A stretch of 64,000 bases of DNA from a virus (Duplodnaviria; Caudoviricetes): positions 28,783-92,782 of IMG/VR virus record IMGVR_UViG_3300048803_000071. One strand, written 5' to 3'. The number at the start of each line of letters is the position of its first letter. The stretch's first letter is position 1. This document shows positions 2,554-29,313 of the stretch, piece after piece. A model generated the notes under the pieces. The model was not told where the DNA came from, ran no database searches, and was given only the letters and a program-made list of their open reading frames with translations. Made by a program: the position numbers and the translations under genes.

Positions 2554-3072
2554 TTATTTAAATGTCGCTGCGTCCAGGTCGTTTTCAGGAATGTTTAAAT
2601 ACCCGTAAAGATTCCTGTCATACTTCTCTGATTTCAGCTGTAATGTGATATACCAAAATGGCACCTTATAATTCGGCTGTATATTTACTATGCCTTTTCC
2701 TCCAAGTAATAGTATAGTATCAAGAGGTATTCCTTTCACAGTTTCATCCCAATAAGCGTAAATTGTCATGGTGATAGTATCTGTCTTTGTAATACCCGCA
2801 CTATCTATTTCATAAGTATATGGGAAACTTGTTTTGTTATCTGCCCACGATACTTCTATTTTTGGTAATGTTATAAGTTTTAAAGAATCAATGTTTGTAA
2901 CGAAGGTTCTTATAAACATCCCGCTCCCGCTGTTTGGGAGAGATTGATATCTTATCGAATAAGATGCTCCGTTATTTGTCCCGGATATTGAATTACCCGG
3001 CTTTATACCTGACCCGGTGAATGCCATTAATATTAATGACAAGGATAATACTATAAGAATTAATTTTTTCAT
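2554..3072 (-). CDS. Sec-signal, D-(S/T)-sequon-rich protein at the capsid-decoration gene position
   Basis: Likely start MKKLILIVLSLSLILMAFT (ATG 3072; ORF track starts at 3093); sequons DSL, DSA, DTI, DTI; first gene after the major capsid gene. Confidence 0.65.
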   Translation of the reverse strand: MKKLILIVLSLSLILMAFTGSGIKPGNSISGTNNGASYSIRYQSLPNSGSGMFIRTFVTNIDSLKLITLPKIEVSWADNKTSFPYTYEIDSAGITKTDTITMTIYAYWDETVKGIPLDTILLLGGKGIVNIQPNYKVPFWYITLQLKSEKYDRNLYGYLNIPENDLDAATFK

Positions 3073-3121
3073 TTTTAATACTCCCGCAACCATTTTTTTA
3101 AAAGATCGTTTTTAAAGAATT

Positions 3122-4651: not shown

Positions 4652-6049
4652 TTACTTGCTTAATTCATCGAGAATTTCTTCTTGAATCGATTTTTCAACC
4701 TTGTCTAATTTGAAGCCGTCGAATTCATAACGGGTTAATGCTTTTTGATATGCATCTGCTCTTATTGTATCTTTAGATGATTCAATCGATTTGGATAAGA
4801 AGCTTTTTACCCTGTGGGAATCTAAGCTTTCAATCTTTTCTTTTCTCTCTTTTGTTTCTTTTTCCTTCTGAACATCCAGTTTATTCAGCTTTGAAGGGTC
4901 GGTAACTATCCCCGGATCAGCTTCGAATGATTTCAAAATCTTTTCATTATCTTCGATGATAAGTCTGGTGTCCTGCGTTAATTCAACGAGATCTTCGTGT
5001 AATGATTTTATCATCTCAAGTTCAGACTGCGCTACGGATAATGTTATTCCGAGCACTTTTGTCAACTCAGCATTTTGTGCAGGAATTGATTTTTGGATTG
5101 TTAACAGCGTGTTACCAATCGCTTCTAAGAATGGCATAGGATCTATACCTTCGTCTTTTGAACCGGTCTTTAAAGAGTCTTCGAGAGATTTCTTTAAAGT
5201 ATCACCGGCTTTGTTTTCCTCAAGTGATGCGCTAAACACTTTAATGGTTTCGAGAGCTGAAGAAATCGTGTTCATACTTTTTGTATAATTTTCTGTTCTG
5301 TTCTTTTCTTTTGTGTTTGCTTCTTCCCATGCTGCGGCTTTTGCATCAGCTGCGGCTTCCGGCAAACCCTGTTCGATAAAGAATTTCTTTGCTTCGGCTT
5401 TGTTTGAAAATTTCATTGGTTTTACTCCTTTAAGGTTTACTGATAATGTTTTATGTGTTTTATCTAAATGCTGTTTTCTTCCGGCTTCTCCACCCGACAT
5501 ATCTCCGGGATTTATATCACTGCCGGCACAAAAACTTTTTATTAATTCTGCGTAAGTTCGTGGATTTTTGGGGTTGGCGGTTAATACAACATTTGTTACT
5601 ACGGCTTTTAATACCTGATTGCCTTTTCTTTGGCGTACACCGCCTTCTATTGAAAAACCGATTCTTCTCTGGTCTTTAGGATGAGTTTTGTTGTATTCCA
5701 TCATATTTTGTAAATCACCTACAGCCTGTTGCGCTATCTCATACTGCGGAGTTCCCGGTCTGGCATAAATAACCCCTTCCATCTTTGTTTCTACACCTTT
5801 GTTTAATGCAAGTTGAGGATAACCGATGTGATACTTTGGGTCTTTGTTGTGCTCGTACTTTAATTTCCCGTATCCCTTTTTCCACATGCTGAAATCTAAT
5901 CCATCCTGAGAAACTTCCTCTTTGTCAAAATCTTCTTTATTATCGGATATTATTCCGCTGATTTTAACGTCTATTATCCCATTCTTCCCATTGTCAGGAC
6001 CTTTGATTAAATCGTCAACCGGTGCAAAAAATTCGAAGTTATCTTCCAT
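4652..6049 (-). CDS. prohead protease with C-terminal scaffold region
   Basis: D.D.E.V...GLD, KYEH, GFSIEG and VVLTANPKNP motifs of herpes/HK97-type phage protease; helical K-S-rich C-terminus. Confidence 0.88.
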   Translation of the reverse strand: MEDNFEFFAPVDDLIKGPDNGKNGIIDVKISGIISDNKEDFDKEEVSQDGLDFSMWKKGYGKLKYEHNKDPKYHIGYPQLALNKGVETKMEGVIYARPGTPQYEIAQQAVGDLQNMMEYNKTHPKDQRRIGFSIEGGVRQRKGNQVLKAVVTNVVLTANPKNPRTYAELIKSFCAGSDINPGDMSGGEAGRKQHLDKTHKTLSVNLKGVKPMKFSNKAEAKKFFIEQGLPEAAADAKAAAWEEANTKEKNRTENYTKSMNTISSALETIKVFSASLEENKAGDTLKKSLEDSLKTGSKDEGIDPMPFLEAIGNTLLTIQKSIPAQNAELTKVLGITLSVAQSELEMIKSLHEDLVELTQDTRLIIEDNEKILKSFEADPGIVTDPSKLNKLDVQKEKETKERKEKIESLDSHRVKSFLSKSIESSKDTIRADAYQKALTRYEFDGFKLDKVEKSIQEEILDELSK

Positions 6050-16908: not shown

Positions 16909-18645
16909 TTAATTTTTAATTTCTTCCGGCTGCCCATATTTTTGAACTATGTTTTTATCATTATCGCTTAAGTTTCCTTGGCTCGGAGGTTGATTCTGCC
17001 CCGGGGGTTGATTCTGCCCTGCTGGTTGATTCTGTTGCTCAGCAGCTGCTTTTTGCTCTTTCTCAGCTGTTAAAGCCGCTAATTTTGATTTTAAGAATTC
17101 ACCGATTATTGAAGAATCAGCGCCTTTTATATCGTAAATATTAATACCGCCTACCATTAAGACTTGCGGTTCGTCGCCATCTTCAACTATTAAATCGTTA
17201 TATGATTTGGTTGTTGCAAGTTCTTGCTTTCTTACTTCAATCTTTACTCTCTGATCCTCAACTTCTATTCCACGGAATCTGCAAATTATATTCATCCCGG
17301 TCATTTCTTTTAAAACATTCGATTGATTTATTATATCCGATATGTATCTTAAGAATGTGTTTAATCCTTTATCCTTGGATATCTGCAATATTCCGTCGGG
17401 TGCCTGGTCGAAAAGCTTCTTTCCTGTCATAGCGCTTTCGTGCGAACTCATAGATACTTCTTCAGGATTTGTACCGCTCAGCTGGCAAAGGACTGTAAAT
17501 AAGAGTACCATCCATAAATGGAATTCCATTTCTCTTGAATTCGCATTGAAAGGTATAAACTTTGCATCTCCTTTATCATTCAATCCGATGATGGGAAGCC
17601 GGAATCTGTTCTGTGCTCCTGATAAATAAGAGTATAATATCTTTTTAAACTGCTCGATAACTATTCGGTTGGTATTTCCACCTTGGAAGGCAAGCATACC
17701 TTGCGGCGTTCGATTGTTATTGAAGTTACTGCTGTTGTAAGATATGCTGTTCATTATATTAAGGATCATCCGTATTCCCTGCTCGCAAATACTATATCCC
17801 CGGTAAGCATCTCTGAAATCCGAAGCTATAAAGAAGTGACTCTTGATCATATACCTATCTGTAAATCCGGCAAGTCTTACATTATTTTTCTCAAGTACAT
17901 ATCGTATCGCATTGTCTTGGTTCCCGGCAAGTCTGTAATCTGTTGCTCTTTTATAAGCATCCGTTTGTATGTCCCATCTTGGAAATTTCGTCAAACCTTT
18001 GGGTAAAACATGATATATTATAGACGGGTCCACTAAATGAAAACCCAATGGTTTACCGCCTTTAGTTCTTCGGATTTCCGTCGATATATCATCCATATCA
18101 AAAAAATCATTGTATGCAACACCTAACCATTTGGAAAAATTAAATTGATTCCCGTGTTCAAAAGGAGTTACAAAAAAATTCTTTATGAATTTTCTTGAAA
18201 ATTCCTTTAAATTTTGTTTTTCAAGCGATGATGCTTTATATTCCGGATCCTCAAACTCCAATATTAAACCGGCTCTTTTACCCTGTGCTAATCTGCCAAA
18301 CTCTGTGAACTGCAAATCCCTTGTATTCTTGATAAGACGTGCAGCTTCTGTTTTTCCTGCATTTCTTAATATCCTGTATCCTAATGGAATTTGAAATCTT
18401 GTGTCGAGGAAAGTATATTCACTGTCCGATTGTTCACCCGGGACAAATTCATCTGTGTATAGAATGCTCAATAAGTCCTGATTCAAAGATGCATTTAGAT
18501 TGTTGCTTTCCTGCATAGTCTTATACCAGGCATTAAAGTCGCCGTCATTTTCCAGTTTATTGAGTAGTTCTTGATTGTTGTTAACAAGTTCCTCCATAAA
18601 TGGCATAGGATTAACCATAGGGGTATCTTTGGTTGGATTCTCCAT
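16909..18645 (-). CDS. portal protein
   Basis: 578 aa; phage portal motifs (GFHLVDPS, GYS..E, F.NNRTPQGML, REMEF..W, P.E); C-terminal QNQP repeats. Confidence 0.88.
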   Translation of the reverse strand: MENPTKDTPMVNPMPFMEELVNNNQELLNKLENDGDFNAWYKTMQESNNLNASLNQDLLSILYTDEFVPGEQSDSEYTFLDTRFQIPLGYRILRNAGKTEAARLIKNTRDLQFTEFGRLAQGKRAGLILEFEDPEYKASSLEKQNLKEFSRKFIKNFFVTPFEHGNQFNFSKWLGVAYNDFFDMDDISTEIRRTKGGKPLGFHLVDPSIIYHVLPKGLTKFPRWDIQTDAYKRATDYRLAGNQDNAIRYVLEKNNVRLAGFTDRYMIKSHFFIASDFRDAYRGYSICEQGIRMILNIMNSISYNSSNFNNNRTPQGMLAFQGGNTNRIVIEQFKKILYSYLSGAQNRFRLPIIGLNDKGDAKFIPFNANSREMEFHLWMVLLFTVLCQLSGTNPEEVSMSSHESAMTGKKLFDQAPDGILQISKDKGLNTFLRYISDIINQSNVLKEMTGMNIICRFRGIEVEDQRVKIEVRKQELATTKSYNDLIVEDGDEPQVLMVGGINIYDIKGADSSIIGEFLKSKLAALTAEKEQKAAAEQQNQPAGQNQPPGQNQPPSQGNLSDNDKNIVQKYGQPEEIKN

Positions 18646-18655
18646 TAATTAAGGT

Positions 18656-18973
18656 TTAGATTTTTTCAAATTCCGCATCTACGGATAACGAAAAATCAGC
18701 ACTGAAAATAACAAGAAAATGATTTTTTGGTAAAACCATATCTTTTAGAGTTAATGTTTCGTGTGATTCTATAGAATATGCGTAATAAATAGATCCTGTC
18801 TTTGCATTTGCGACACTATCCGGAACGGTAGAATAAAATCCTATAGTCACTTCTGCTTTGGCTGCAGTAGAGTTACAAACCACAATATTGGTTAATTTCA
18901 AATCTGCGCCTTTGTTATTGTAGCAGGTTGTTATTGCAGAACTAATCCCATGAAATAATTTTTTTACGTTCAT
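18656..18973 (-). CDS. small beta-sandwich virion-type protein
   Basis: 105 aa; NIVVCN...VTI...I...ETL pattern typical of small phage structural proteins; no signal peptide. Confidence 0.45.
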   Translation of the reverse strand: MNVKKLFHGISSAITTCYNNKGADLKLTNIVVCNSTAAKAEVTIGFYSTVPDSVANAKTGSIYYAYSIESHETLTLKDMVLPKNHFLVIFSADFSLSVDAEFEKI

Positions 18974-19268
18974 TTTAATTTTCCTTATTTTATTTGATAT
19001 ACCATTGAAAATTTTTGTAAATAAAAGTTTTTGATTGCCATTGAGTATTCCACTTCTCCTCAGATGCTCCGTCTATTAATAATCCGCCTTTTGCTTTTAC
19101 AACTACGTATGTTGCATTTGCATCGATTTTTTTCACCGTACATTCAAACCCATTTGTTATCCCTATGTTAGCTAAATAAACAGTATCATTATTCGAGGCA
19201 TCACAATTTACAAGCATTGTGTTTCTGCCCGAATATATTGTATCGCTTTTATTAGCACCTATTGAATC
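18971..19268. repeat. ~300 bp direct repeat, copy 1 (copy 2 at 22487-22785)
   Basis: Near-identical DNA covering the shared C-terminal domain, stop codon and the start of the next gene. Confidence 0.9.
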
Positions 19269-19760
19269 AATTGCAAGTATCAATGAGGCACCCCTTAATA
19301 AGAACCTTAAGCTGTCAGATTTTGCCATATAGTTAAGAGAATCAGCATTTTTCAAGAACTTTGTACTATCTGCCTTAGCCATATAATTAAGAGAATCAGC
19401 ATTTTTTAAGAATCTTACACTATCTGCCTTAGCCATATAATTAAGAGAATCAGCATTTTTTAAGAATCTTACACTATCTGCCTTAGCCATATAATTGAGA
19501 GAATCAGCATTTTTTAAGAATCTTACACTATCTGCCTTAGCCATATAATTGAGAGAATCAGCATTTTTTAAGAATCTTGTACTGTCTGATTTTGGCATTT
19601 TAGTATCCATATCACCCGGAGTTGATAAATCCGAATACCACTTACCATTAACATAAAAAGAATCAAGAGCAATTATTCTTTTTGCTTTATATTCTCTTAC
19701 CTGCGAAAATAGAGGGACCGAAACCAGTAACAATAAAAATAAAAATATGAACTTTTTCAT
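18990..19760 (-). CDS. Sec-exported fibre-like protein with tandem O-glycosylation sequon repeats
   Basis: Signal MKKFIFLFLLLLVSVPLFS-Q; 5 x KNADSLNYMAKADS(V/T/L)RFL-type units; C-terminal VKKID..IDG..Q.QS..W fibre-type domain. Confidence 0.75.
   Translation of the reverse strand: MKKFIFLFLLLLVSVPLFSQVREYKAKRIIALDSFYVNGKWYSDLSTPGDMDTKMPKSDSTRFLKNADSLNYMAKADSVRFLKNADSLNYMAKADSVRFLKNADSLNYMAKADSVRFLKNADSLNYMAKADSTKFLKNADSLNYMAKSDSLRFLLRGASLILAIDSIGANKSDTIYSGRNTMLVNCDASNNDTVYLANIGITNGFECTVKKIDANATYVVVKAKGGLLIDGASEEKWNTQWQSKTFIYKNFQWYIK
19300..19598. repeat. 54-bp coding tandem repeat, about 5.5 copies
   Basis: Repeating gagaatcagcattttttaagaatcttacactatctgccttagccatataatt, in frame (18 aa). 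Confidence 0.95.
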
Positions 19761-19791
19761 TATAGATTTTTTATTTATAAGTTATTAAAAT

Positions 19792-20115
19792 TTAATTTGT
19801 AATTTCATCTTCAGTTATCTTTCTTAATTCTTCATCTTCTGCCCTTCTTCTTCCCCACTCTTTCTCGAAAGATGCATTTAATGCTTTACCAAATTCAGCA
19901 TAATCACCTTCCATTGTTCTAAATGCGACGATTAAAACATCGAATTTTGTTTGATATAATTTATTTTTAGCTATAACTCTTGCTGTAAACTTCTCATCTT
20001 TTCTTATTTTCCGTATTAAAAGAAAAGTAAACATGGAAAAAATAAAAGATATAAAACCTCCTACTGCGTATAATACAACTATACCTATGGATAATGTTGA
20101 TTCAGAATCTGGCAT
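19792..20115 (-). CDS. putative holin-like membrane protein
   Basis: One N-terminal TM helix followed by a basic stretch and charged tail; near the endolysin. Confidence 0.45.
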   Translation of the reverse strand: MPDSESTLSIGIVVLYAVGGFISFIFSMFTFLLIRKIRKDEKFTARVIAKNKLYQTKFDVLIVAFRTMEGDYAEFGKALNASFEKEWGRRRAEDEELRKITEDEITN

Positions 20116-20716
20116 GTAATAATCTGTTTATATGATGTCTTAAAATAATTGAAATAATTACAAAGATAGTTAAAGTATTAGGTGCTACTCCGGAAGAAAT
20201 ATTTTTGATATACCAAAATAAAATAGATACATTCAAAAAATGACCTATTAAACCTATAATGGATAAAAACATTAAACTGTATATTAAAACTCTGGCTAAA
20301 ACATATTTATCATCTCTGCGAAAAGCTATTAAAAAACTAACAGTTATCAAAATTAGAAATCCTAAGGTTGTCCCGAAAGAACTTGGTGTTTTACCGTCCC
20401 ATACTACAGTCGCTTCTGAATTATCTATTATTGAAACTATCCGTAAAAAATAAGAACTAACTATTAAGAATAATACCATAGTATTCAATCCTGTCACTAT
20501 TGCTAACTTCCAAGTAGGTAATTCAATATTATCATCTATGATTAATATCCAGGTTATCCCGAATAAAATCAAAGATACAGAAGTATTAAATTTCATTGAA
20601 ACTTCTGTTATATGAAATGTCGTATAAAAATCATAACCCAATAACCAAGAAACTGTTACTATTAAACCAAAAATAATAAGTAACATTCCTATTCCATATT
20701 TTATAAATTTAATCAT
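20102..20716 (-). CDS. polytopic membrane protein resembling a signalling-protein membrane sensor domain
   Basis: About 6 TM helices; MKFNTS and GVAPNT motifs. Confidence 0.5.
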   Translation of the reverse strand: MIKFIKYGIGMLLIIFGLIVTVSWLLGYDFYTTFHITEVSMKFNTSVSLILFGITWILIIDDNIELPTWKLAIVTGLNTMVLFLIVSSYFLRIVSIIDNSEATVVWDGKTPSSFGTTLGFLILITVSFLIAFRRDDKYVLARVLIYSLMFLSIIGLIGHFLNVSILFWYIKNISSGVAPNTLTIFVIISIILRHHINRLLHARF

Positions 20717-20864
20717 AGTAAAAATATATTAATTAATGAAATAATTACCATTGTGCAAAAGATGCTCCCAATATAAAAAGAAATGTTGAAATTATAAAAA
20801 ATATTGCAAACGCTATGCCTATTTTTATTTTTTCCATAATTTTATGCTGTTGCCTTATTTTATA

Positions 20865-21620
20865 TTAAAATTTATACCAGTTGCCGTTTCTGTAGATGTA
20901 ATTATTGCTTTGATATTGTGTGTTGAAAATATCATTGGTTACTCCGTCAATCGTTCCTTTTACTACCACATAATTTACACTCGCATCAATTTTCTTAACA
21001 ATTATTATTGCTCCATTAACCGAAGGAGTATGGAGTATTATTGTATCATTCGCATTAGCAGCGTTAACCAATATCATATAACTATCCGCGGTTGTTGTAG
21101 TGTTTACTGCAACACTATCTATTGCCAATGTCAATCCTGTTGTTATAATATTTGATGAAAAAGTATTTAATCCTGTCCAAATATTATTAAGAAGCAAGAG
21201 ATTTCTCCCGAGGGGAGAAAGGACGCCGGAATTTCTTTCGATCCGGATAACTGCCTTTCTCCCTCCTTTTAGAGAGTTTTTAAGTCTTGCAATATATTTT
21301 GTTGTTCCAACATTCAGAATGGAATAACTCTTTGAGGAGCTTGTGAGTGAACCAGCGGATAGAACAAACATATTATAGATTTGTCTATCTCCTTGCTCCA
21401 CTCCAAATAGAAGTATTTCCCTGTATGGATTCGAGAGAACTGCAACTACCTCTATACTGTCATTAGTCCCGGTCAATGCTGTAATTGTAAGTACGAAATT
21501 ATCGCTTACATTTACGCTTGTCAGGTTGACTGAGGTATGGACCGAATCCAATATTATTTCTTGTTGGGGATAGCAAAATGTTGCTACACTTAAAAACAAA
21601 ATTAAGAGTAAAGTTCTCAT
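20865..21620 (-). CDS. Sec-exported fibre-like protein, sequon-rich
   Basis: Likely start MRTLLLILFLSVATFCYP-QQ (ATG 21620; track starts at 21662); DSV, DSI, DSV, DTI; divergent copy of the same C-terminal VKKID..IDG..QYQS..W domain. Confidence 0.7.
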   Translation of the reverse strand: MRTLLLILFLSVATFCYPQQEIILDSVHTSVNLTSVNVSDNFVLTITALTGTNDSIEVVAVLSNPYREILLFGVEQGDRQIYNMFVLSAGSLTSSSKSYSILNVGTTKYIARLKNSLKGGRKAVIRIERNSGVLSPLGRNLLLLNNIWTGLNTFSSNIITTGLTLAIDSVAVNTTTTADSYMILVNAANANDTIILHTPSVNGAIIIVKKIDASVNYVVVKGTIDGVTNDIFNTQYQSNNYIYRNGNWYKF

Positions 21621-21672
21621 TAATTTATTTTTATATTTCGGAAAAAACATAGTCTTTTTCATTAATAAATTT

Positions 21673-22308
21673 TTAATTATTCATAATTTCTTCACAGAAC
21701 TCAATTGTCAGGTCAATTATTTTTTGTTTATTCTCAGGATTGCAAAGCCATATTACTGAGTCAAGATTATCTTGAAATCTGAATTCAATAAGAATTGCCG
21801 GAGGTTTGCAAAGCAGGACTGCAAAATCGCTTTCGTAGTCGATATCACCATCACTATAATCACCCTTAACGGGACAATCGGGTAACTCTTCTTCATACTT
21901 TTCCATATAATTAGTAGCATAAGCATCTGCTCTTGTTTTACCTCTTGTCGTCCATATAGTTACAAAATCTGCTGAATGAAACTTGTCATCTTTATTTGCT
22001 GCGTTCGTATGGAATGACATAAGTAATGCGTCATCGTAAGATTTCGCAATCTGATTAGCAACCCTCACCCTCACAGATAATCCGGGCTCGGTTTCTCCTG
22101 TAACCGTAAGACCTACAGGAATATTCCTTGCCTTCAGTCCCTGATATACACCTGCTACTATCTGATCAGACCATGCATATTCCCGGAATCGGTTATCAAT
22201 GATTTCCGGTTGATCTAAAAACGGAAAGTCATCGGGTAGTACCGGACTTCTTTTTCCCGTAACATTTTCGCCGTGTGCCCTGTCAAGAATAAATACAAAG
22301 TCTTTCAT
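21673..22308 (-). CDS. N-acetylmuramoyl-L-alanine amidase (Amidase_3) endolysin
   Basis: ILDRAHG, E, SFHTNA and ILIE..FQDN zinc-amidase motifs. Confidence 0.9.
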   Translation of the reverse strand: MKDFVFILDRAHGENVTGKRSPVLPDDFPFLDQPEIIDNRFREYAWSDQIVAGVYQGLKARNIPVGLTVTGETEPGLSVRVRVANQIAKSYDDALLMSFHTNAANKDDKFHSADFVTIWTTRGKTRADAYATNYMEKYEEELPDCPVKGDYSDGDIDYESDFAVLLCKPPAILIEFRFQDNLDSVIWLCNPENKQKIIDLTIEFCEEIMNN

Positions 22309-22486
22309 TTTATATTATAGTTAAGTATTGTTGATAAAAATTTTCTACTTCTGCTGTTCTGTCTTCTGGATCTAAAACAAATTTACCGTTTTCTTCGATT
22401 GGTTCTTTCTTTATAATACAATCCATTGCTGATTGATTGTTCACCCAATGAATGAATGTTTTTATTTCTTCTAATGTGTTAAATTC

Positions 22487-22785
22487 CATTTTAATTTTCC
22501 TTTATTTTATTTGATATACCATTGAAAATTTTTGTAAATAAAAGTTCTTGATTGCCATTGATTATTCCACTTATCATCAGATGCTCCGTCTATTGTTAAT
22601 CCGCCTTTTGCTTTTACAACTACGTATGTTGCATTTGCATCAATTTTTTTCACTGTACATTCAAAACCGTTTGTTATTCCTATATTAGCTAAATAAACAG
22701 TATCATTATTTGAGGCGTCACAATTCACAAGCATTGTGTTTCTGCCTGCATATATTGTATCTGATGTTGAAGCACCTATTGAATC
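22487..22785. repeat. ~300 bp direct repeat, copy 2
   Basis: Matches 18971-19268. Confidence 0.9.
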
Positions 22786-23241
22786 TATACCAAGTGTTAA
22801 AGATGCAGTGAAAATATTTCTCCAAAATAAAGCAGATGTTCCTAAATCATAAATTTTATTTAGAATAGGATTTACCAATGATAAATTAAATCTGGACACT
22901 CCGCTTATACTTGAATCAGTTCCGTTCAAATATATACTGCCTACGTTAAGCCTACTCAACCCGCTTATACTTGAATCAATTCCGTTAAGATATATACTGC
23001 CTGCTTTAAAACTTCCTGCTGAATCTATATAATTCATTACAACCGTATCAATAATAACTTTGTTGAATGTATTTATACCTAACCAAACATTGCCTCCACG
23101 AAGGTCTGGTAAAACAGTAAACCAAATTCCGCCAACTTGAACTGAATCCCCTACAATTAAAACCTGTATTGTTTGTTTTCTTATCTGTGCATTTAAACTT
23201 AAAGAAATCAATAAAAATATAATTAAAAATAATTTTTTCAT
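22507..23241 (-). CDS. Sec-exported fibre-like protein, sequon-rich
   Basis: Signal MKKLFLIIFLLISLSLNA-Q; DSV, DTV, DSA, DSI, DTI, DTV plus 2 x DSS in a 60-bp repeat; C-terminal domain nearly identical to 18990..19760. Confidence 0.75.
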   Translation of the reverse strand: MKKLFLIIFLLISLSLNAQIRKQTIQVLIVGDSVQVGGIWFTVLPDLRGGNVWLGINTFNKVIIDTVVMNYIDSAGSFKAGSIYLNGIDSSISGLSRLNVGSIYLNGTDSSISGVSRFNLSLVNPILNKIYDLGTSALFWRNIFTASLTLGIDSIGASTSDTIYAGRNTMLVNCDASNNDTVYLANIGITNGFECTVKKIDANATYVVVKAKGGLTIDGASDDKWNNQWQSRTFIYKNFQWYIK

Positions 23242-23246
23242 ATTCG

Positions 23247-26054
23247 CTATATTAAAGTTATTGTTTTTCCTGTTACTGATGTTCCGCTGCAGCTTAATTT
23301 TAATAAATCCCCTGCTTTGATTGTAAAGGGTAAAGTAGGTTGAGTAAAAGTAGCGCCTTCATCTTCACTTAAATAAATAACAACTGTGCCTTGCCCAAAT
23401 TCAAGCATCTCTTTTATTAATCTTTCGTTTGGTGCGATATAATATTTATCTTGGTCTCCCTCAAACATCATATAAAACAAAGGTTCTGCTTTATCTACTA
23501 CTCCATTTACCGCATATGTACCATTTCCTGTAAAATGTATAGTTGAAATAGGTTTCGCATCAAAAGTATTTAATCCTTTCAAATTGATTGTTGCTGGTAA
23601 TTGAGTAAATCCTGATAAGGCATAATTACACCCCATTATCACAGGAGTAAATCCTGTTAATCTATTGGTTTTATCCCATGCTTCTAAATCACAATTCTCC
23701 AATGTTAAATATTGAGTATTCCAAAAAACTTCACCTTCTGCCCAGTCCGACCTCATCATCAATACATTGCCTTGCCTTGATTTTAATGCAGTGTTCTTTA
23801 TATATACTTTATTTGGGTAATAAGTATTCATCTGAACAGCACACCAATTATATTTGTTTTCTGCAATATCAACTTCCAAAAATAAATCACAACCACCTAC
23901 TGACACAGGACATTCTCCATCAACTTCTATTTTTCTTCCTTTATAAATAATATATCCCATATCAGAACCTAACCCCGTAGCTCCATTATATCTTCCTCTA
24001 TTAAAAATCATCTCATCAACTTCAAAAATTGACGTTGTACCAGTGTTTGCTTGATTAGATATTTGAGCAATAATACCTACTCTATAATCGTCGTTGTTAG
24101 CAGTTGAAATCAATCTTCTCACCTTAAAATGCATAATATTATCTCTATGACTTATACAATGTCCTACATTATTAACAATTATTTCATCTCCTTCATAAGT
24201 CCCATGACATCTTGTAATTAAACCTGTTGAGCCTGTGTCCGGTAATCCTTTAGTTCCCGTTTCAATACTTCTTACCTTCCCTTCAAATCTCCCGTATAAA
24301 CTCCATAACAATATTCCGCAATTTCTTCTACTCAATACTTTGTTACAGTTTAATTTAAGATTTGCGCAAACTACATATAACGCTGGGTCTCCGTTATTGG
24401 GGGTATTATTTGGACCTAATTGGTCTATACTATCAAATTCAAGTTCTATATTTGGTCCTCCATATATAGGTATCCATTGCCTGCCATCAAATCTTTTCAT
24501 TAGATAATATCCATAAGTAAATAAATTATCTCCTACCTTATAAATGTATACATTAGAATAAGCAGTAGTTACACTTATTCCTTTGTTAACACATTCCCAA
24601 TGTTGTTCAGTTGTATTGGTATTTGCACTTTGTAACCTAAACACACCATATTTACTTATGCTTAAAAATACATCTTCATAATTATTATCGTTGTAAGTTT
24701 CAGCATTAGAAATTGCAACTAAACTACTACAAGTTAAAGAAGTTAATGATATCTCAAACGGAATTTCTTCCCATACTGTTGATACCTCTAATACCCATCT
24801 ATAAACTTTATGTTCTGTTGAATTAAAAATATAAACCGTATTTTTAGGTGGGTCAGAAACAAATAACTTTGTACTTACTGTTAAATGAGATATTGTATCC
24901 CCCTCAATCCCGCTATCCATAAGAGTCCATGTAGTAACACTTCCTCCACTGCTTTCAACTCCTCTATATATTTTCCCATCTGCTAAAGCAATTACATCTA
25001 CTCCCACAGTAAATAATTTTGACACAACTGTAAAAGCACCATCACTTTCAAAAGGTTCGGTATATCCTCCTCTTGTTACATATAAACCATTATTTGTTCC
25101 TATATATACATTTTGATTTGCCGAGGTATAAGCCCCACAATTTAAACTAGCTGAAGGAAGACCAACAGAATTTTCAATCCAAGTTTTTCCGTTATCTTCA
25201 CTGTAATAAAATTTATAAATGCTGTTATATGATTTATACCCCAATACTAAATTTGAATCATCTTTATAAAAACTTTGCAAGAAATATGGAACAGAGTATT
25301 CAGTTGCTCTTGCAAAATTCATTCCATCCTGACTTTCATAATAAGGATGAGGGTCAGTATTAGCGTAGTTAGAACTTGGGAATAAAACTAAACCTCCGTT
25401 TAAATCGATGCCTTTGTCATAATATAAATTTGAAAAATCCGAAGTTTTCCCCGTTAAAAATATCCCGCTTGTTGTCCCCGGCTCTGTGTCTGTTATGAAC
25501 TTTCCATTACCTGTCAGTTTAAAATTTGTTAGATTCGTTCCATATAGAGGTTTAGAATTAGTCAAAGGATGAATAACAACACCATCCTCTAAATGTAAAT
25601 GAATTCCGTCTCTTACAACTAATGCTTCATTGTAAGTTCCTTTTTTTACGTAGATTATTACATTATCGGGGGCTTTATCTATATAATCCTGAATTGTTTG
25701 CCCCGGATATACAACAATATCATTCCTACCGTCACCAAATCTTCTTGTTATCCACCCGGGTCTTGGAGTAATTCCATCATCACATAAATTCATAGTATAA
25801 TCATACTCTATGTAATCATTAGGATATAATTCTGAATATACTTGATTAGAAATAATATTATTAGAAAGTGCTAAACAAATTATTGGTTCTACCGGTCCTG
25901 CACCGTTTCTTTGATAATCTGTGATTCTATAATAGTAACCGGCTGAAAGTGATTCACTATTTATGGCAGTTATTAACTGAGCGTATGTTAAATCGATTAA
26001 CATAATACATACGTTTTGATTGGACATTTCACCTCCGAATTTAACTGTTATCAT
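23247..26054 (-). CDS. tail spike/receptor-binding protein (beta-helix with BNR-like propeller insert)
   Basis: N-terminal YRITDY anchor; TIQ..ID...IYVKKGTYNE pectin-lyase-like start; YSEDNGKTW Asp-box. Confidence 0.65.
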   Translation of the reverse strand: MITVKFGGEMSNQNVCIMLIDLTYAQLITAINSESLSAGYYYRITDYQRNGAGPVEPIICLALSNNIISNQVYSELYPNDYIEYDYTMNLCDDGITPRPGWITRRFGDGRNDIVVYPGQTIQDYIDKAPDNVIIYVKKGTYNEALVVRDGIHLHLEDGVVIHPLTNSKPLYGTNLTNFKLTGNGKFITDTEPGTTSGIFLTGKTSDFSNLYYDKGIDLNGGLVLFPSSNYANTDPHPYYESQDGMNFARATEYSVPYFLQSFYKDDSNLVLGYKSYNSIYKFYYSEDNGKTWIENSVGLPSASLNCGAYTSANQNVYIGTNNGLYVTRGGYTEPFESDGAFTVVSKLFTVGVDVIALADGKIYRGVESSGGSVTTWTLMDSGIEGDTISHLTVSTKLFVSDPPKNTVYIFNSTEHKVYRWVLEVSTVWEEIPFEISLTSLTCSSLVAISNAETYNDNNYEDVFLSISKYGVFRLQSANTNTTEQHWECVNKGISVTTAYSNVYIYKVGDNLFTYGYYLMKRFDGRQWIPIYGGPNIELEFDSIDQLGPNNTPNNGDPALYVVCANLKLNCNKVLSRRNCGILLWSLYGRFEGKVRSIETGTKGLPDTGSTGLITRCHGTYEGDEIIVNNVGHCISHRDNIMHFKVRRLISTANNDDYRVGIIAQISNQANTGTTSIFEVDEMIFNRGRYNGATGLGSDMGYIIYKGRKIEVDGECPVSVGGCDLFLEVDIAENKYNWCAVQMNTYYPNKVYIKNTALKSRQGNVLMMRSDWAEGEVFWNTQYLTLENCDLEAWDKTNRLTGFTPVIMGCNYALSGFTQLPATINLKGLNTFDAKPISTIHFTGNGTYAVNGVVDKAEPLFYMMFEGDQDKYYIAPNERLIKEMLEFGQGTVVIYLSEDEGATFTQPTLPFTIKAGDLLKLSCSGTSVTGKTITLI

Positions 26055-26090: not shown

Positions 26091-26420
26091 TCATATTATT
26101 CTCAACACTTCGTCCGCCACGCCTTTTGCAAACACTCTATATGCCTGATATTCTGTGTATTCTGACTGATGCTCAGTATTGCCATCATCCTTATTATATA
26201 GGAGTGCGAGTTGTCTTCCTGTGGGATATTTATCAAGCAATATTGCCTCGATAATTTCCGACCTTGTGGGTTGGGTTGATACTTTTACCTGTTCGTATTC
26301 AAATCCTTCTTCCGTTACACTTATTCGTTTTTTCGTATATGGAGCAATGTCAAAGTTAATTAACAAGCCGCCTTGTAATTTTTGTAAAGCTTCAGGTCTG
26401 GTATTCGATTGTACTTTCAT
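26091..26420 (-). CDS. small helical protein overlapping RT 3' end (fibre-associated or DGR accessory)
   Basis: 109 aa; overlaps RT by 29 bp; EY..YQAYR..AK..A C-terminus. Confidence 0.55.
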   Translation of the reverse strand: MKVQSNTRPEALQKLQGGLLINFDIAPYTKKRISVTEEGFEYEQVKVSTQPTRSEIIEAILLDKYPTGRQLALLYNKDDGNTEHQSEYTEYQAYRVFAKGVADEVLRII

Positions 26421-27429
26421 TTTTTATGTGGTTTAATATTTGTAAAATTTCGTCTGTTATGTATTTATTCCATAAAGCATGTCTGATTGGTTTTATCCAT
26501 CCCCAATAACTTGCTACGCCGTTTAGTATTTGTTCCCTTGTCATATACCGCCAGTTTTTCTTAACAATCAGTATCTTTTGCTTAAATCTTTTTGCGATGT
26601 TGCCTCTCAGTAATGTTATCCCTTTGAAGAATCTGTATCCGCAGAAGTCGAGACCTCGCGCCTCTAAGGGGAATATCTGATAATTAGACTTTAATGATAA
26701 AATTAATTTACTTTGTAGATAAGTTCTTATTGCTCTTAATAGTCGGTGTAGTTTTTTCTTGAAATTACTTAACACTACTATATCATCGCAGTATCTGAAA
26801 TAATGCTTTATTTTCTGCGTTCCTTTTACCCAATGGTCAAAATATGCCAGATATAAATTGCCGAAATATTGAGATAGATAATTCCCAATTGGCATTCCTT
26901 TTGCGGAGAATACTATTTCGCGGAGTAAAAACAGTGTTTGGCGGCATTTTATTTTTTTCTTTAAAATTTGCATTAAGATAGTATTGTTTATTGACGGGTA
27001 ATATTTTTTTATGTCCAGTTTCAAACAATATTTTGCTTTACCTGTCCTTACCGCCCTTTGCACTCTCCTTCTCGCATCCGATACGCCTCGACCTTTGATG
27101 CTTTGATATGTATCTCGAATTAAAGTTTTCTTCCAAATCGGTTCTAATATCTGCATTATTGCATGGTGTAATATCCTGTCGGGAAAATACGGTAACCTGT
27201 AAATCGTTCTTTTTTTCCCTTTATCCATCTTATCAGATATTTTATATTTGCTGTTTTTAAAAGTTTGTGTGATAAGAGTGTTTTGAAGCTGAGTTAAATA
27301 TTCATCCGGATTTTTATCGATTCTCTTAACTTCAGCGTAATGCGTTTTACCTTTCCTTGCATTTGAATGTGCAAGTCTAAGGTTATTAATGTCGTAAATT
27401 TTATGATATAAGTTGCCGTATCGTTTCAA
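26392..27429 (-). CDS. DGR reverse transcriptase
   Basis: GMPIGNYLSQ and YFRYCDD motifs; 345 aa with no maturase or endonuclease domain; TTG start with AAGGAG upstream; adjacent TR/VR pair. Confidence 0.95.
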   Translation of the reverse strand: MKRYGNLYHKIYDINNLRLAHSNARKGKTHYAEVKRIDKNPDEYLTQLQNTLITQTFKNSKYKISDKMDKGKKRTIYRLPYFPDRILHHAIMQILEPIWKKTLIRDTYQSIKGRGVSDARRRVQRAVRTGKAKYCLKLDIKKYYPSINNTILMQILKKKIKCRQTLFLLREIVFSAKGMPIGNYLSQYFGNLYLAYFDHWVKGTQKIKHYFRYCDDIVVLSNFKKKLHRLLRAIRTYLQSKLILSLKSNYQIFPLEARGLDFCGYRFFKGITLLRGNIAKRFKQKILIVKKNWRYMTREQILNGVASYWGWIKPIRHALWNKYITDEILQILNHIKNESTIEYQT

Positions 27430-27560
27430 GCCGCTGCTCCTTGCCTGTTTTTCGTTCCAGAATCTTCGCTTTCGCTACCAATACTTTGTGGAACTCTACC
27501 CGCTCTTTCGAGCTGGCATAATGTTTTACCAAGAGGTAAGGTTATATAACGCTGTTTGTA
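27430..27560 (-). ncRNA. DGR spacer RNA region downstream of TR
   Basis: Minus-strand hairpins TTACC-TCTT-GGTAA and GCTC-GAAA-GAGC between TR and RT. Confidence 0.6.
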
Positions 27561-27680
27561 ACAGGATAGACGACACCCAATATTCTGATTCGCATTACCA
27601 GAATCATTATTCAGATTCCAATAGAAAGCACCAGCATTCGTACCATTATTCGCATTACCGCCGATTAACGTGACGTGCCT
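27561..27680 (-). repeat. DGR template repeat (TR)
   Basis: Aligns gap-free to 27751-27870 (offset 190); 10 AAT codons; 18 of 21 core mismatches are at TR adenines. Confidence 0.95.
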
Positions 27681-27744
27681 TGCTGCATTATGTAACCCTC
27701 TTACTTTAATCATTTAATTTATTCTATTTATTCAAAAATTTTTT

Positions 27745-29313
27745 TTAAAAGCAGGCAAGACGACACCCAACATACTGATACGCAGGACCAGAATCATAAG
27801 CCAGAATCCAATCGAAAGCACCAGCCTTCGCACCATAATACGCATAACCGCCGAAGCACGCGACGCGCCAACCTTCTGCATCTTCATTGGCTTCATAATA
27901 ATCACAAAGCCCTACGCTTGAACTCCCGTCGGCACTCGTAGGTAAGAAACCACGCTTATTAGGGAGTATTGTTCTTATGTATCCACCACTACTTCCGAGT
28001 GTTCCAAGCAATGTGTAGTTACTGTCTGAATCATCCGTGTATTCGTTCGGTGTGCTATGAACATAAGCAGCGTTTGCATTGATTGATATTCCGTCAACAA
28101 ATTTCATAATATGTCCCCAGAAGTTTTCAATGCCTCTGTAACTTAAATATTTTGTGCTTTCCGTCGCAGCTGATGTACTTCCTGCATTGTTACCACTCGC
28201 ATCGCCGATTGCATTTGAATTACCTGATATTGCTATCGGATTGTAGTTGTTGTAAGCCGCCCAATCATTCACGTTAGTAATCGCTACGCCTAAAACCGAT
28301 TGTGAATTGAAACTTCCGTATTCAATCAAGAATAATAGTTGTATTGCACTTACTGTATCGAAGTCCTGCTGGAACCATCCTGCACCTCTGTTACTTGCAA
28401 GTACTCTTGTATTTGCACGTGTAAGATTCGTTATAGGCATCTTATCGTTTACTGAGGAAAGCTTATCGCCTGTTGTTGCTGTGTAGTCTTTTTGTGTACT
28501 GATTTCGGTATTAGCTTCCGTCGCATCACTAACATCCTCGGTAACTATTATTTTCGTTGCACTTGAAACCGTTGCCACTGTATAAGTACCGTTTAATGCA
28601 CTTGTACCCGTGATAACTAATTTATCACCTGCCTCAAGTCCCGCAAATCCGCCTATTAAACTTGTAGTAATTGAATTATCTGTATCTGCAAAAACTACAC
28701 TATGAGCGGGTAAATACTTTCCGTTTGCATAACGACTTGCAGAAGTGTCGTAAAGCATTCCCTCATAAGCTCCAATGTAGGCAAATGGTTTTTCAGTACC
28801 TGCTTTATTAAACATTGGATGTACTTCATACCCTGAAAGAGGTACAGCGGAAATTTGCCACGTATGAATTGTATCTCCCGCAACAACTGCTATTGAATAC
28901 TTATAGTAGAATTTTGGAATCTCTACCATGACTTGACCATCAGTTCCATCAAGCACAGCACTTGTTACTCCATCTTCTTTTTTTGTTGAATCTGTAGCTG
29001 ATAGATAATATTCTACAACCCCCGCTGCTTTCATAAGACACCGTCTCATTTGTGAATGGATTGGGAGATTAGCATCACCTGCCGAAACTCCAGTTGCTAT
29101 TCCTATAAGACTTCCTGTTCTTGCATAAGTATCATCTGTTTCATTCCACGATAAACCTTGCGGTAATAGGTTTTCAAGAGAGGTCCCGATTAAATTCTTC
29201 GGTGAGATTTTTTTAAGTTGCCCCGTTGATGCGTCAAGAATCTTAAGTAAGTCGTTATTTACGTCAACAGTAATTAATTCTTGTAATTTTTCTACAGGTG
29301 GTTCGTAACTCAT
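27745..29313 (-). CDS. DGR target, putative tail fibre/adhesin with C-type lectin (Mtd-like) fold
   Basis: VMVEIPKFY, YIGAYEG and YRGIENFWG...FVDG motifs; C-terminal VR; N-terminal fibre-anchor-like segment. Confidence 0.88.
   Translation of the reverse strand: MSYEPPVEKLQELITVDVNNDLLKILDASTGQLKKISPKNLIGTSLENLLPQGLSWNETDDTYARTGSLIGIATGVSAGDANLPIHSQMRRCLMKAAGVVEYYLSATDSTKKEDGVTSAVLDGTDGQVMVEIPKFYYKYSIAVVAGDTIHTWQISAVPLSGYEVHPMFNKAGTEKPFAYIGAYEGMLYDTSASRYANGKYLPAHSVVFADTDNSITTSLIGGFAGLEAGDKLVITGTSALNGTYTVATVSSATKIIVTEDVSDATEANTEISTQKDYTATTGDKLSSVNDKMPITNLTRANTRVLASNRGAGWFQQDFDTVSAIQLLFLIEYGSFNSQSVLGVAITNVNDWAAYNNYNPIAISGNSNAIGDASGNNAGSTSAATESTKYLSYRGIENFWGHIMKFVDGISINANAAYVHSTPNEYTDDSDSNYTLLGTLGSSGGYIRTILPNKRGFLPTSADGSSSVGLCDYYEANEDAEGWRVACFGGYAYYGAKAGAFDWILAYDSGPAYQYVGCRLACF
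27751..27870 (-). repeat. DGR variable repeat (VR) at 3' end of target gene
   Basis: Encodes WRVACFGGYAYYGAKAGAFDWILAYDSGPAYQYVGCRLAC versus TR RHVTLIGGNANNGTNAGAFYWNLNNDSGNANQNIGCRLSC. Confidence 0.95.

Follow-up and report, generated by a model that had tools for sequence, protein, structure and literature searches.

Described systems closest to the locus

The sequon of the general O-glycosylation system of the Bacteroidota, D-(S/T)-(A/I/L/M/T/V), operates only on proteins outside the cytoplasm, shows nearly complete occupancy and functions on foreign proteins (PMC12871550), whilst the presence of Gln at the +1 position of the signal peptidase I site in Bacteroidetes is known as the Q-rule (PMC5837995); on both points the literature agrees with what the initial annotation of the DNA analysed here had taken as established. 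The known substrates of this system are signal-peptide proteins in which D-(S/T)-(A/I/L/V/M/T) lies in soluble extracytoplasmic regions (PMC12871550, PMC8729774). These are cellular, whereas those described below are phage late proteins, and P. gingivalis glycoproteins carry ~1.8 sites each (PMC8729774), compared with densities of 1.5-5.5 per 100 aa in the phage proteins. Neither the review (PMC12871550) nor the P. gingivalis glycoproteome (PMC8729774) mentions phage.

Prophage-encoded proteins of unknown function, with Sec signal peptides exposing an N-terminal Gln, have been described in P. gingivalis (Matrishin et al. 2023, PMC10367356); unlike the present analysis, that work proposes modification of the outer membrane, and does not mention glycosylation, sequons or a fibre-type fold. 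The MAT fibres of Bdellovibrio bacteriovorus (PMC10769870) also resemble the proteins considered here, being trimers similar to phage tail fibres, having Sec signal peptides and being mosaic, one end conserved and the other variable. However, MATs are cellular, and have a conserved N-terminal beta-rich domain of ~130 aa after the signal peptide and a variable C-terminal tip. This description sets the present proteins apart, as in these it is the C-terminal domain that is conserved and the N-terminal parts that vary; they are also encoded in a phage late operon, and bear a sequon load specific to Bacteroidota. XepA of PBSX and YomS of SPbeta (PDB 6i56, 6i5o) represent another exported beta-rich protein without a known role, the gene neighbours of which are a holin and an amidase, but the fold match is weak (Z 2.8), the host is Gram positive and no glycosylation motif is involved.

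No published description of exported, sequon-packed phage fibre proteins was found. Freeman et al. 2023 are said to have shown that mycobacteriophage virion proteins are glycosylated in the cytoplasm by phage-encoded glycosyltransferases. Glycan-decorated structural proteins, in this case predicted, would be common to those tailed phages and the one analysed here, but the latter has no detected glycosyltransferase, and its route would be the periplasmic system of the host.

Predicted exported proteins and their genes

The window, meaning the whole stretch of DNA analysed, comprises 64,000 nt (positions 28,783 to 92,782) of the 92.8-kb viral record IMGVR_UViG_3300048803_000071. The phage is best explained as a prophage of ~98 kb, temperate and myovirus-like, residing in a member of the Bacteroidota; its integrase is located past the right end of the window. 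The host is probably a member of the Bacteroidota on the basis of the Q-rule leaders of the phage and of a NuoM in the host flank at the prophage junction, the nearest Atlas cluster of which has Bacteroidota as its commonest phylum. No members of the glycosyltransferase and OTase families GT2, GT1, Wzy_C and PMT_2 were found in the 92.8-kb record, extending to its full length the absence of a recognisable glycosyltransferase previously noted for the window.

Signal peptides were called using an in-house heuristic based on hydrophobicity and charge, rather than a trained predictor, which identifies n-h-c leaders in four proteins of the window and three more in the 92.8-kb record. The four ORFs, all on the minus strand, are those originally annotated, and the predicted signal peptides and shared C-terminal domain ascribed to them were likewise recovered. 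SP1 (18990..19760; 256 aa) is a predicted exported fibre-like protein, with a leader ending in LFS, followed by Q, and 14 sequons. Its stalk is an 18-aa repeat with two sequons per unit, encoded by a 54-bp tandem repeat on the minus strand (19324..19578; 4.7 copies, 96% matches), which contributes 11 of the 14 sequons. SP3 (22507..23241; 244 aa), also a predicted exported fibre-like protein, has a leader ending in LNA before Q and six sequons; two conserved sequons lie in its neck, and it also has a tandem duplication of 20 aa and a C-terminal domain similar to TSP4-XD and gp10. SP2 (20865..21662; 265 aa) is a divergent paralogue with four sequons, the probable start of which, at 21620, is Met15 of the longer ORF and is that chosen in the initial annotation. 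Its leader is hydrophobic, with an ambiguous cleavage site (…FCYPQQ…); hence the assertion that leaders in all three late genes are followed by Gln holds for SP1 and SP3, with SP2 ambiguous. Gln is also at +1 of the predicted site in a further exported protein of the phage (G000 857-1396; SYS before Q), and follows the leader in all 11 members of alignment A2. SP4 (2554..3093; 179 aa) is an orphan, predicted by the same heuristic to be exported, and lies directly after the major capsid gene, as had been reported; its probable start, 3072, is Met8 of the longer ORF and again the one first annotated. Its leader lacks a following Gln, and it has four sequons where 0.66 are expected.

The C-terminal ~100 aa of SP1 and SP3 are 87% identical, and both share 45% identity with SP2 in this domain. 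The similarity extends to the DNA, with a 300 nt direct repeat consisting of the SP1 C-terminal domain coding sequence plus 17 nt (18973..19272) and the corresponding SP3 coding sequence (22490..22789; 90% identical). These two copies flank the lysis genes, all on the minus strand: an Amidase_3 endolysin between SP3 and SP2 (21673..22308); a 204 aa protein for which about six TM segments are predicted (20102..20716), which has no family match and forms part of the lysis and membrane cluster; and a 107 aa protein with one TM segment and a charged C-terminal tail (19792..20115), the topology of which suggests a holin. Downstream of the cluster, the head module begins with the portal gene (16909..18645, minus strand), whilst just upstream of SP3 is a non-exported spike-like protein (23247..26054, minus strand; 935 aa) with weak beta-helix and BNR-type matches. 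No promoters or terminators specific to the fibre genes were detected, and these genes lie on the same strand within the late operon. Other exported proteins of the phage include a 326 aa virion-type, pectin-lyase-like protein, encoded in the tail-fibre module after Baseplate_J, a homologue of which (P0152) likewise combines a leader with sequons, and two spanin-like proteins (G000 857-1396 and 1393-1755).

SP1-SP3 were themselves considered as spanins and rejected: the cleavage sites of SP1 and SP3 have no Cys nearby, the …ATFC… of SP2 has Phe at -1 and constitutes no lipobox, and, at 244-265 aa with a beta-sandwich end, none is a small coiled-coil protein.

Fold and family of the C-terminal domain

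The C-terminal domain, modelled with a pLDDT of 86.2, best matches residues 51-175 of CBA120 TSP4 (Z 12.4), consistent with the fibre-like character originally proposed for it; the Foldseek search gave an E value of 2e-5. Further matches were to the Solidus gp83 tailspike C-terminus (Z 11.3), the KP1 baseplate (Z 11.1), the Pa223 capsid spike (Z 9.5), the Mu tail fibre (Z 8.9) and T4 gp10 and gp9, the best being virion proteins in every case. As judged from the model, the domain is of the CBA120 TSP4-XD/T4 gp10 fold, a virion type. It shares with TSP4 XD, gp10/gp9, the Mu fibre and gp83 a beta-sandwich of ~100 residues (Z 8.9-12.4), found at the end of trimeric fibre or spike proteins; however, identity is 12-21%, and these comparators lack a signal peptide, their synthesis and assembly taking place in the cytoplasm. 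Phage fibres are usually cytoplasmic and lack a secretion signal, whereas SP1, SP2 and SP3, paralogues of one another, carry leaders, as do their nearest relatives.

The domain family comprises 9,019 representatives, most of which are fibre-like and lack a signal peptide, many of them apparently from high-GC organisms on the basis of amino acid composition. The nearest relatives of the window proteins (P0003, 4, 7, 8, 10, 11, 13, 14 and 15) all have a signal peptide, then Gln, and an excess of sequons. Signal peptides and conserved sequons occur together only in a Bacteroidota-type subclade, and across homologues the sequons track the leader: one of the two neck sequons is found in 11/11 exported members and the other in 10/11, compared with 4/294 copies of the domain elsewhere. 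The domain is 70-75% identical between the window phage and an unrelated, Mu-like phage, which suggests a binding partner on the host side rather than on the particle.

Sequon enrichment

Using the published sequon definition (PMC12871550), the counts of 14, 4, 6 and 4 previously given for SP1, SP2, SP3 and SP4 are exact, totalling 28 in 944 aa; so too are those for the non-exported structural proteins, with none in the capsid (470 aa), two in the spike-like protein (935 aa) and three in the DGR target (522 aa). Across the 92.8-kb record, the seven exported proteins have 41 sequons in 1569 aa (2.61 per 100 aa), a density 13.6-fold higher than that of the 104 other proteins (0.19 per 100 aa), and the ratio of observed to expected (O/E) sequons given composition is 7.2 for the exported set and 0.81 for the remainder. 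Asp is followed by Ser or Thr in 47/87 instances in exported proteins and 178/1606 in others (p 7e-21), with the third residue being an allowed one in 41/47 and 52/178 of these respectively (p 6e-13).

Cellular exported proteins do not share this property. Among 88 Bacteroidota signal-peptide proteins, drawn from secondary replicons of other Bacteroidota rather than from the true host, the pooled O/E was 0.6-1.2, with a median density of 0.08 and a maximum of 1.66 per 100 aa, placing the phage exported set above these controls. The pattern of the window phage does recur in three phage contigs unrelated to it (L012, L014 and L004), where exported proteins have an O/E of 5.1 and others 0.99. The spanin-like exported proteins of these phages and of the window phage are equally rich in sequons, making the enrichment a property of the phage's whole exported set, and dense sequons therefore no specific mark of virion proteins.

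It is conceivable that nothing here is special, with the leaders being non-functional and the motif excess arising from composition, repeats or gene-calling artefacts. The tandem repeat origin of most SP1 sequons and the heuristic calling of signal peptides are compatible with this, but we regard it as very improbable. Every exported protein exceeded 5000 composition shuffles (p 0.0002-0.022); with SP1 left out, 27 sequons are observed against 4.5 expected (Poisson p 5e-13); and five control motifs, including reversed, Glu-for-Asp and disallowed third residue versions, showed no enrichment (0.2-0.9x). Furthermore, only leader-bearing proteins show the excess at each of four independent phage loci, and it tracks the leader across homologues, whilst the leaders have n-h-c structure with Ala or Ser before Gln, as in the Q-rule. 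The sequon load is under strong selection; proteins that the phage does not export lack it, as do members of the domain family that are not exported and the ordinary exported proteins of cells.

Roles of the exported proteins

The combination of a host secretion signal with approximately seven times the chance number of sequons implies that these proteins are very probably exported and coated with sugar outside the cytoplasm. Export and host O-glycosylation of the sequon-rich late proteins are well supported in silico, the leaders are presumably cleaved, and we have high confidence that the exported proteins do become glycosylated. Following export from the cytoplasm through host-type Sec signal peptides, signal peptidase I would cleave the leaders, mostly before Gln, and the exposed N-terminal Gln would cyclise to pyroglutamate, whilst the general O-glycosylation system of the host would add glycans at the dense D-(S/T)-(A/I/L/M/T/V) sites. 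SP1, SP2 and SP3 would then be short proteins resembling trimeric fibres, each with a variable glycosylated stalk, a two-sequon neck and a conserved C-terminal beta-sandwich. We tentatively favour these being accessory appendages of the virion, which would mature in the periplasm and meet the particles built in the cytoplasm only once the adjoining holin and endolysin cassette breaches the inner membrane, producing a particle with fibres coated in host glycan; for this account as a whole, exported, host-glycosylated and added at lysis, the chances seem to us a little short of even. Its attachment step is equally tentative.

Export and glycosylation might instead not lead to incorporation into the particle, with the proteins acting in the envelope or after release as accessory factors of the lysis cassette, as lectin-like trimers, periplasmic or released, masking the receptor of the phage, or as soluble glycoproteins freed at lysis. 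We consider this a real, if rather doubtful, possibility. In the window, endolysin, holin-like and multi-TM genes lie in between the fibre genes, and fibre genes adjoin endolysin or holin-type genes at three of the four loci (the window, L004 and L014); at the fourth, L012, where no endolysin was found, the neighbours are a small exported coiled-coil protein and a 2-TM protein. The sequon enrichment common to spanin-like proteins, and the high conservation of the C-terminal domain across unrelated phages, as expected of a binder of host ligands, also fit such a role, as does the phage already having ordinary cytoplasmic fibre and spike candidates. P. gingivalis glycosylation, moreover, mainly serves periplasmic proteins, which it is thought to stabilise (PMC8729774). 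However, no known lysis or exclusion protein has this fold or family, which belong to virion fibres and spikes; SP1-SP3 have no lipobox, and hence are not o-spanins; leader-bearing fibre or spike proteins are recorded in the virions of Cellulophaga phage phi18:3; and a periplasmic protein cannot reach a receptor on the outer surface before lysis. Receptor masking would amount to superinfection exclusion, or to guarding progeny from adsorption to debris.

That the proteins form surface fibres on the lysogen or infected cell, as adhesins of lysogenic conversion crossing the outer membrane by the T9SS or another route, with the C-terminal domain as a sorting or anchor signal, appears unlikely, although the phage is temperate and the arrangement of a signal peptide, a variable passenger and a conserved C-terminal beta-sandwich of ~90 aa resembles T9SS cargo. 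The MAT fibres (PMC10769870) provide a precedent for Sec-exported phage-fibre-like trimers decorating a bacterial surface, and the P. gingivalis Q-rule phage proteins have been proposed as surface modifiers (Matrishin et al., PMC10367356). Against this, no T9SS sorting-domain (type A or B CTD), lipoprotein or other family model matches any of the exported proteins in Pfam at E<=0.01 or in NCBIfam at E<=0.05. No T9SS CTD appeared in the lists of fold-search matches of the C-terminal domain, which does not exclude one. The domain is also found in ~9,000 mostly leaderless proteins, many apparently from high-GC organisms, the genes lie in a same-strand late operon with no promoters or terminators of their own detected, and abundant P. 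gingivalis surface proteins tend not to be O-glycosylated (PMC8729774).

Leader-bearing proteins of Cellulophaga phages

The accessory appendage reading has a parallel in cultured Cellulophaga phages. Proteins gp085-087 of phi18:3 (KC821620.1) and gp079-083 of phi46:3 are, like those of the window, late fibre- or spike-type proteins with a leader, Gln next, encoded directly upstream of the lysis cassette; in phi18:3, all three begin with a signal peptide then Gln. They differ in being large (547-785 aa), of pectate-lyase type and depleted in sequons (O/E about 0.2-0.3), and no sequence relationship to the window proteins was detected. As phi18:3 gp085-087 are annotated as 'structural protein, experimental MS/MS', virion loading gains support by analogy. 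The MS/MS label could reflect proteins that co-purify, and those proteins carry few sequons.

More generally, some Bacteroidota tailed phages could conceivably assemble in two compartments, with heads and tails made in the cytoplasm and certain fibres or spikes exported by Sec, trimmed to pyroglutamate, heavily O-glycosylated by the host in the periplasm in the window's lineage, and added only when the holin opens the inner membrane; this we hold to be possible, if somewhat more doubtful than the appendage reading itself. It counts against the appendage reading that tailed phages are not known to put together any part of the virion across the inner membrane. If assembly in two compartments is true, the virion would wear the protein glycan of its own host without needing a phage glycosyltransferase.

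In phi46:3, the exported proteins are depleted in sequons (O/E 0.19, p 9e-5), whereas its other proteins are not (1.01). Together with the enrichment in the window phage, this indicates that sequons in leader-bearing phage proteins are selected in both directions, which implies that such proteins are genuinely exposed to the periplasm.

Organisation of the fibre and lysis cluster

Comprising 64 kb, the window covers the right-hand part of a 92.8 kb IMG/VR provirus record, nearly all genes of which are on the minus strand. The phage is temperate: a related contig has an integrase approximately 5 kb past the right end of the window. It is also myovirus-like, since the part of the record upstream of the window encodes a tail-fibre module and a Baseplate_J protein. 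The prophage is present in samples JGI 3300048804 and 3300046508 and in SRR35912769. At its opposite end the phage finishes with a PD-(D/E)XK nuclease gene, which adjoins a host NuoM gene, the nearest protein-atlas cluster of which is commonest in Bacteroidota; the host phylum was inferred from this one flanking gene and the style of the leaders (signal peptides) and sequons.

In transcription order, the cluster runs from a 935 aa spike-like protein (23247-26054) through SP3 (22507-23241), a 59 aa ORF, an Amidase_3 endolysin (21673-22308), SP2 (20865-21662), a protein with about six transmembrane (TM) segments (20102-20716), a single-TM holin-like protein (19792-20115), SP1 (18990-19760) and a 105 aa ORF to the portal gene (16909-18645), all features with coordinates being on the minus strand. 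SP1, SP2 and SP3 are leader-bearing, fibre-like paralogues; a fourth leader-bearing gene, SP4 (2554-3093, minus strand), follows the capsid gene (3180-4592). As the initial annotation had proposed, all four N-termini are textbook leaders, as called by a heuristic on ORFs from simple ATG-only greedy calling. It had also placed a Gln after the leaders of the three paralogues: this residue follows LFS in SP1 and LNA in SP3, the position is less clear in SP2 (…FCYPQQ…), and the SP4 leader has no Gln following it. The C-terminal domain said to be common to SP1-3 spans around 100 aa, with 87% identity between SP1 and SP3 and 45% for SP2. The stalk of SP1 is encoded by 4.7 copies of a 54 bp repeat.

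The C-terminal coding sequences of SP1 and SP3 form a 300 nt direct repeat of 90% identity, with lysis genes in between; the copies (18973-19272 and 22490-22789) comprise the domain coding sequence and 17 nt past the stop codon. Were the copies to recombine, the genes for the endolysin, SP2 and the membrane proteins would be lost; gene conversion of the paralogues is another possible outcome. Coinciding with the exported-protein and lysis cluster, positions 18001-26000 have an AT skew of -0.10 to 0.00, as opposed to -0.2 to -0.34 elsewhere, and a GC content down to 0.30-0.33, which may reflect amino acid usage or a separately acquired module. Scans of 18.5-26.2 kb for promoters, using a sigma-70 model rather than one of Bacteroidota promoters, and for terminators scored no better than shuffled sequences. 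No match to the region was found among 50,697 GenBank phages by nucleotide and protein searches, and the fibre paralogues, SP4 and the wider domain family belong to no family in Pfam, PHROGs or NCBIfam; an Atlas search with SP4 returned only sub-threshold orphan clusters. A diversity-generating retroelement (DGR) occupies 26392-29313, comprising a reverse transcriptase-like ORF (26392-27429), a 95 aa ORF (27426-27713) and the non-exported 522 aa target protein (27745-29313), to the C terminus of which the 95 aa ORF is 54% identical.

Sequon excess in exported proteins

The counts originally reported for the Bacteroidota O-glycosylation sequon, D-(S/T)-(A/I/L/M/T/V), were exact, both for the four leader-bearing proteins (14, 4, 6 and 4) and for the non-exported capsid, spike-like and DGR target proteins (0, 2 and only 3, respectively). 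Calling ORFs across the whole 92.8 kb record revealed three more leader-bearing proteins with an excess, all upstream of the window (G000 857-1396, 1393-1755 and 4692-5672). Together, the seven exported proteins have 41 sequons in 1569 residues, or 2.61 per 100 aa, an observed/composition-expected ratio (O/E) of 7.2; the 104 other proteins have 52 in 27128 residues (0.19 per 100 aa; O/E 0.81). The proposed enrichment over shuffled sequences was borne out for every exported protein, each exceeding 5000 composition shuffles, and the excess persists when SP1 is left out (27 observed, 4.5 expected; p = 5e-13).

Control motifs (reversed, with Glu for Asp, with a disallowed third residue, or in swapped order) occur at 0.2-0.9 times expectation. 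Ser or Thr directly follows Asp in 54% of cases in the exported proteins, compared with 11% elsewhere (p = 7e-21), and an allowed residue then follows D-S/T in 87% compared with 29% (p = 6e-13). This is the signature expected of selection on the whole tripeptide, and it agrees with the published sequon rule, even to Glu not being tolerated in B. fragilis (PMC12871550). The chance that the pattern is an artefact is very slight.

The sequon load is also not ordinary for exported proteins. Among 88 leader-bearing proteins from two Bacteroidota replicons, neither of which is from the true host (a 200 kb portion of a Segatella hominis replicon and a 395 kb Persicobacter plasmid), sequon density has a median of 0.08, a 90th percentile of 0.56 and a maximum of 1.66 per 100 aa. 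The minimum among the exported phage proteins, 1.5 per 100 aa, is attained by just 3.4% of these cellular proteins. The P. gingivalis glycoproteome contains 257 sites in 145 proteins (PMC8729774). Taken jointly, export, cleavage and host O-glycosylation of the phage proteins are, on these sequence features, highly probable.

In the Persicobacter sp. JZB09 plasmid 4, sequons are under-represented in all proteins (pooled O/E 0.60 for those with a leader, 0.44 for the rest), in contrast to Segatella (1.20 and 0.95), neither being a replicon of the host. The Segatella replicon (NZ_CP137560.1), a 317 kb 'plasmid', contains a Mu-like prophage at around 85-126 kb (35000 of segment L019 to 25700 of L020), in which a DGR-type reverse transcriptase adjoins the tail-fibre genes; an amidase and a lipoprotein, the latter not sequon-rich, lie beside it.

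Relatives in other phages

The suggestion that leader and sequons might co-occur in homologues held true. All nine of the nearest relatives of SP1-3 (P0003, P0004, P0007, P0008, P0010, P0011, P0013, P0014 and P0015), which are low-GC in composition, have a leader ending in Ala, Ser or Gly and then Gln, with sequons at 2-5 times expectation, whilst leaderless members of the domain family have sequons at or below expectation. The neck of the exported members has the sequon IDS(I/T/V)G in 11/11 cases and D(S/T)(I/V/M)Y in 10/11; elsewhere neck sequons are found in 4 of 294 domain copies, most of these copies having no neck, which rules out a structural trait of the whole family. A second family pairing leader and sequons is represented by an exported 326 aa pectin lyase-like protein of the tail-fibre module, the one full-length homologue of which (P0152) likewise combines a leader with about six sequons. 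Pattern scans found no exported-subclade members in IMG/VR, and species-representative genomes yielded a single distant Bacillota MAG.

The relatives reside in phage contigs unrelated to this phage. In the Mu-like contig L012, the gene lies between those for Mu gp36 and Mu F; in L014, an endolysin is 1 kb downstream; and in L004 the order is holin, Amidase_2, fibre and small exported protein. Across these three loci the O/E is 5.1 in ten leader-bearing proteins and 0.99 in 34 others, and the leader-bearing proteins outside the fibre family alone give 5.9 (p = 3e-11). Also encoded in L014, at 2166-2810 and in one cluster with P0008, is a 214 aa protein that has a leader, four sequons and a BclA_C (C1q-like trimer tip) domain; it is another exported fibre-tip type. 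The excess is evidently lineage-specific rather than universal, being absent from the cultured Chryseobacterium phage MA9V-3, which is distantly related through its baseplate protein and encodes one leader-bearing protein.

Fold of the C-terminal domain

A profile search with the C-terminal domain retrieved 9,019 representatives, 335 of them at E <= 1e-10. It is frequently C-terminal or tandemly repeated, one 3238 aa protein having 23 copies; most of the proteins have fibre-like N-termini without a leader, and many have a high-GC type of amino acid composition. No Pfam model describes the domain, and the family has the look of a very common fibre or adaptor module of phages that is as yet undescribed. 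AlphaFold run on SP3 as a single sequence reached a pLDDT of 37.5; a usable model (pLDDT 86.2) was obtained for the domain only, from a 32-sequence alignment. This model justifies the original 'virion-type' label for SP1-3: Foldseek and an independent VIA-align search concur in matching it to residues 51-175 of CBA120 TSP4 (Z 12.4), the C-terminal domain of the Acinetobacter phage Solidus tailspike (Z 11.3), a Klebsiella KP1 baseplate protein (Z 11.1), the Pseudomonas phage Pa223 capsid spike (Z 9.5) and the Mu tail fibre (Z 8.9), with T4 gp10 and gp9 matched in Foldseek only.

Precedent in cultured Cellulophaga phages

Leader-bearing fibre or spike proteins are recorded in the particles of one cultured Bacteroidota phage, with synteny as in the window. 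In the Cellulophaga Pachyviridae phage phi18:3 (KC821620.1; locus L038:1392-7084), gp085, gp086 and gp087 are annotated as structural proteins with experimental MS/MS, a label that may include co-purifying proteins and is silent on N-terminal processing. All three have a leader ending GYS, VSA or LNA before Gln, with small TM proteins, a glycosyl hydrolase endolysin and small exported proteins encoded directly downstream. The corresponding set in phi46:3 (L034:30343-38945) is gp079-083. Several Cellulophaga phage genera have such proteins, annotated as structural protein or pectate lyase, and conservation among them is about 90% over the first 100 or so residues, of which the leader is part.

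The leader-bearing structural proteins of these Pachyviridae are depleted in sequons, significantly so for the exported proteins of phi46:3 (O/E 0.19, 3 against 16.0 expected, p = 9e-5; others 1.01). With sequons enriched in one lineage and depleted in the other, and non-exported proteins near 1 in both, the pattern is what one would expect of real contact with a periplasmic glycosylation machinery.

Possible routes from the periplasm

No lipobox is detectable in SP1-3, and Pfam and NCBIfam searches gave no match to a T9SS sorting domain, which rules out T9SS sorting at the sequence level; hence, after cleavage, these proteins should stay soluble in the periplasm until lysis. Display on the surface of a lysogen is improbable, the T9SS route to it having no detectable sorting domain. 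The claim that no glycosyltransferase is recognisable stands for the four families that were found to be absent from the record (GT2, GT1, Wzy_C and PMT_2), and a phage-encoded glycosyltransferase or oligosaccharyltransferase (OTase) is ruled out for those only; as no such family was found in the record, the host system would do the glycosylation. On the favoured reading, SP1-3, and perhaps also the 326 aa and capsid-adjacent proteins, would be accessory appendages with periplasmic maturation, added to particles once the inner membrane no longer separates the two, owing to the neighbouring holin/endolysin cassette. By analogy with phi18:3, such loading onto virions has a chance only a little short of even.

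A role in the envelope or after lysis, without virion association, is somewhat less probable. Several observations speak against a purely virion reading. Sequon enrichment extends to exported proteins that resemble lysis components, all such annotations, in this phage and in L012, L014 and L004, being inferences from sequence. The last three late genes (G000 857-2153) are a second lysis-like set, encoding a 133 aa holin-like protein with 2-3 TM segments, a 120 aa N-terminally anchored coiled-coil (i-spanin-like) protein and a 179 aa protein with a leader, a coiled coil and an outer-membrane-type beta-signal end (…GYRIF); the set could include a spanin pair with an outer partner that is beta-strand-anchored rather than a lipoprotein. 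L012 and L014 have leader-bearing proteins with a C-terminal TM segment, like unimolecular spanins, and L012 and L004 have small leader and coiled-coil proteins after the fibre gene. Homologues of the small exported coiled-coil and 2-TM proteins found alongside the fibre gene of L012, L014 and L004 were not detected in this phage. Of the four loci, three (the window, L004 and L014) have fibre genes adjoining genes of endolysin or holin type; no endolysin was found in L012, where the neighbours are small exported coiled-coil and 2-TM proteins. In addition, the C-terminal domains of this phage and of the Mu-like phage, which is otherwise unrelated to it, have 70-75% identity, suggesting a ligand on the host side. 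The cultured Cellulophaga phages, with their existing MS/MS data, make the key question of virion loading directly testable.

Q-rule leader proteins of unknown function have been described in P. gingivalis prophages by Matrishin et al. 2023 (PMC10367356), the text of which has no occurrence of 'glycosyl'; conversely, neither a review of Bacteroidota O-glycosylation (PMC12871550) nor the P. gingivalis glycoproteome paper (PMC8729774) contains 'phage'. Literature searches for glycosylated phage proteins in Bacteroidota found nothing relevant. The nearest exported fibre-like trimers are the MAT fibres of Bdellovibrio, which differ in being cellular and in having the opposite end conserved (PMC10769870). 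If SP1-3 are glycosylated, the phage exploits a phylum-specific host protein glycosylation pathway for its own late proteins, a use of which we found no published description. If they are also on the particle, the assumption that tailed-phage virions assemble wholly in the cytoplasm would be overturned and there would be a second, enzyme-free route to glycan-coated virions, bearing on host recognition, mucus and lectin binding, and immune visibility in gut and environmental Bacteroidota phages.

Obtained from sequence alone, the sequon O/E of a phage's leader-bearing proteins acts as an indicator of their exposure to the periplasm and could be surveyed across all Bacteroidota phages: it stands at 7.2 here and 0.19 in phi46:3, with non-exported proteins at about 1.0 in both.
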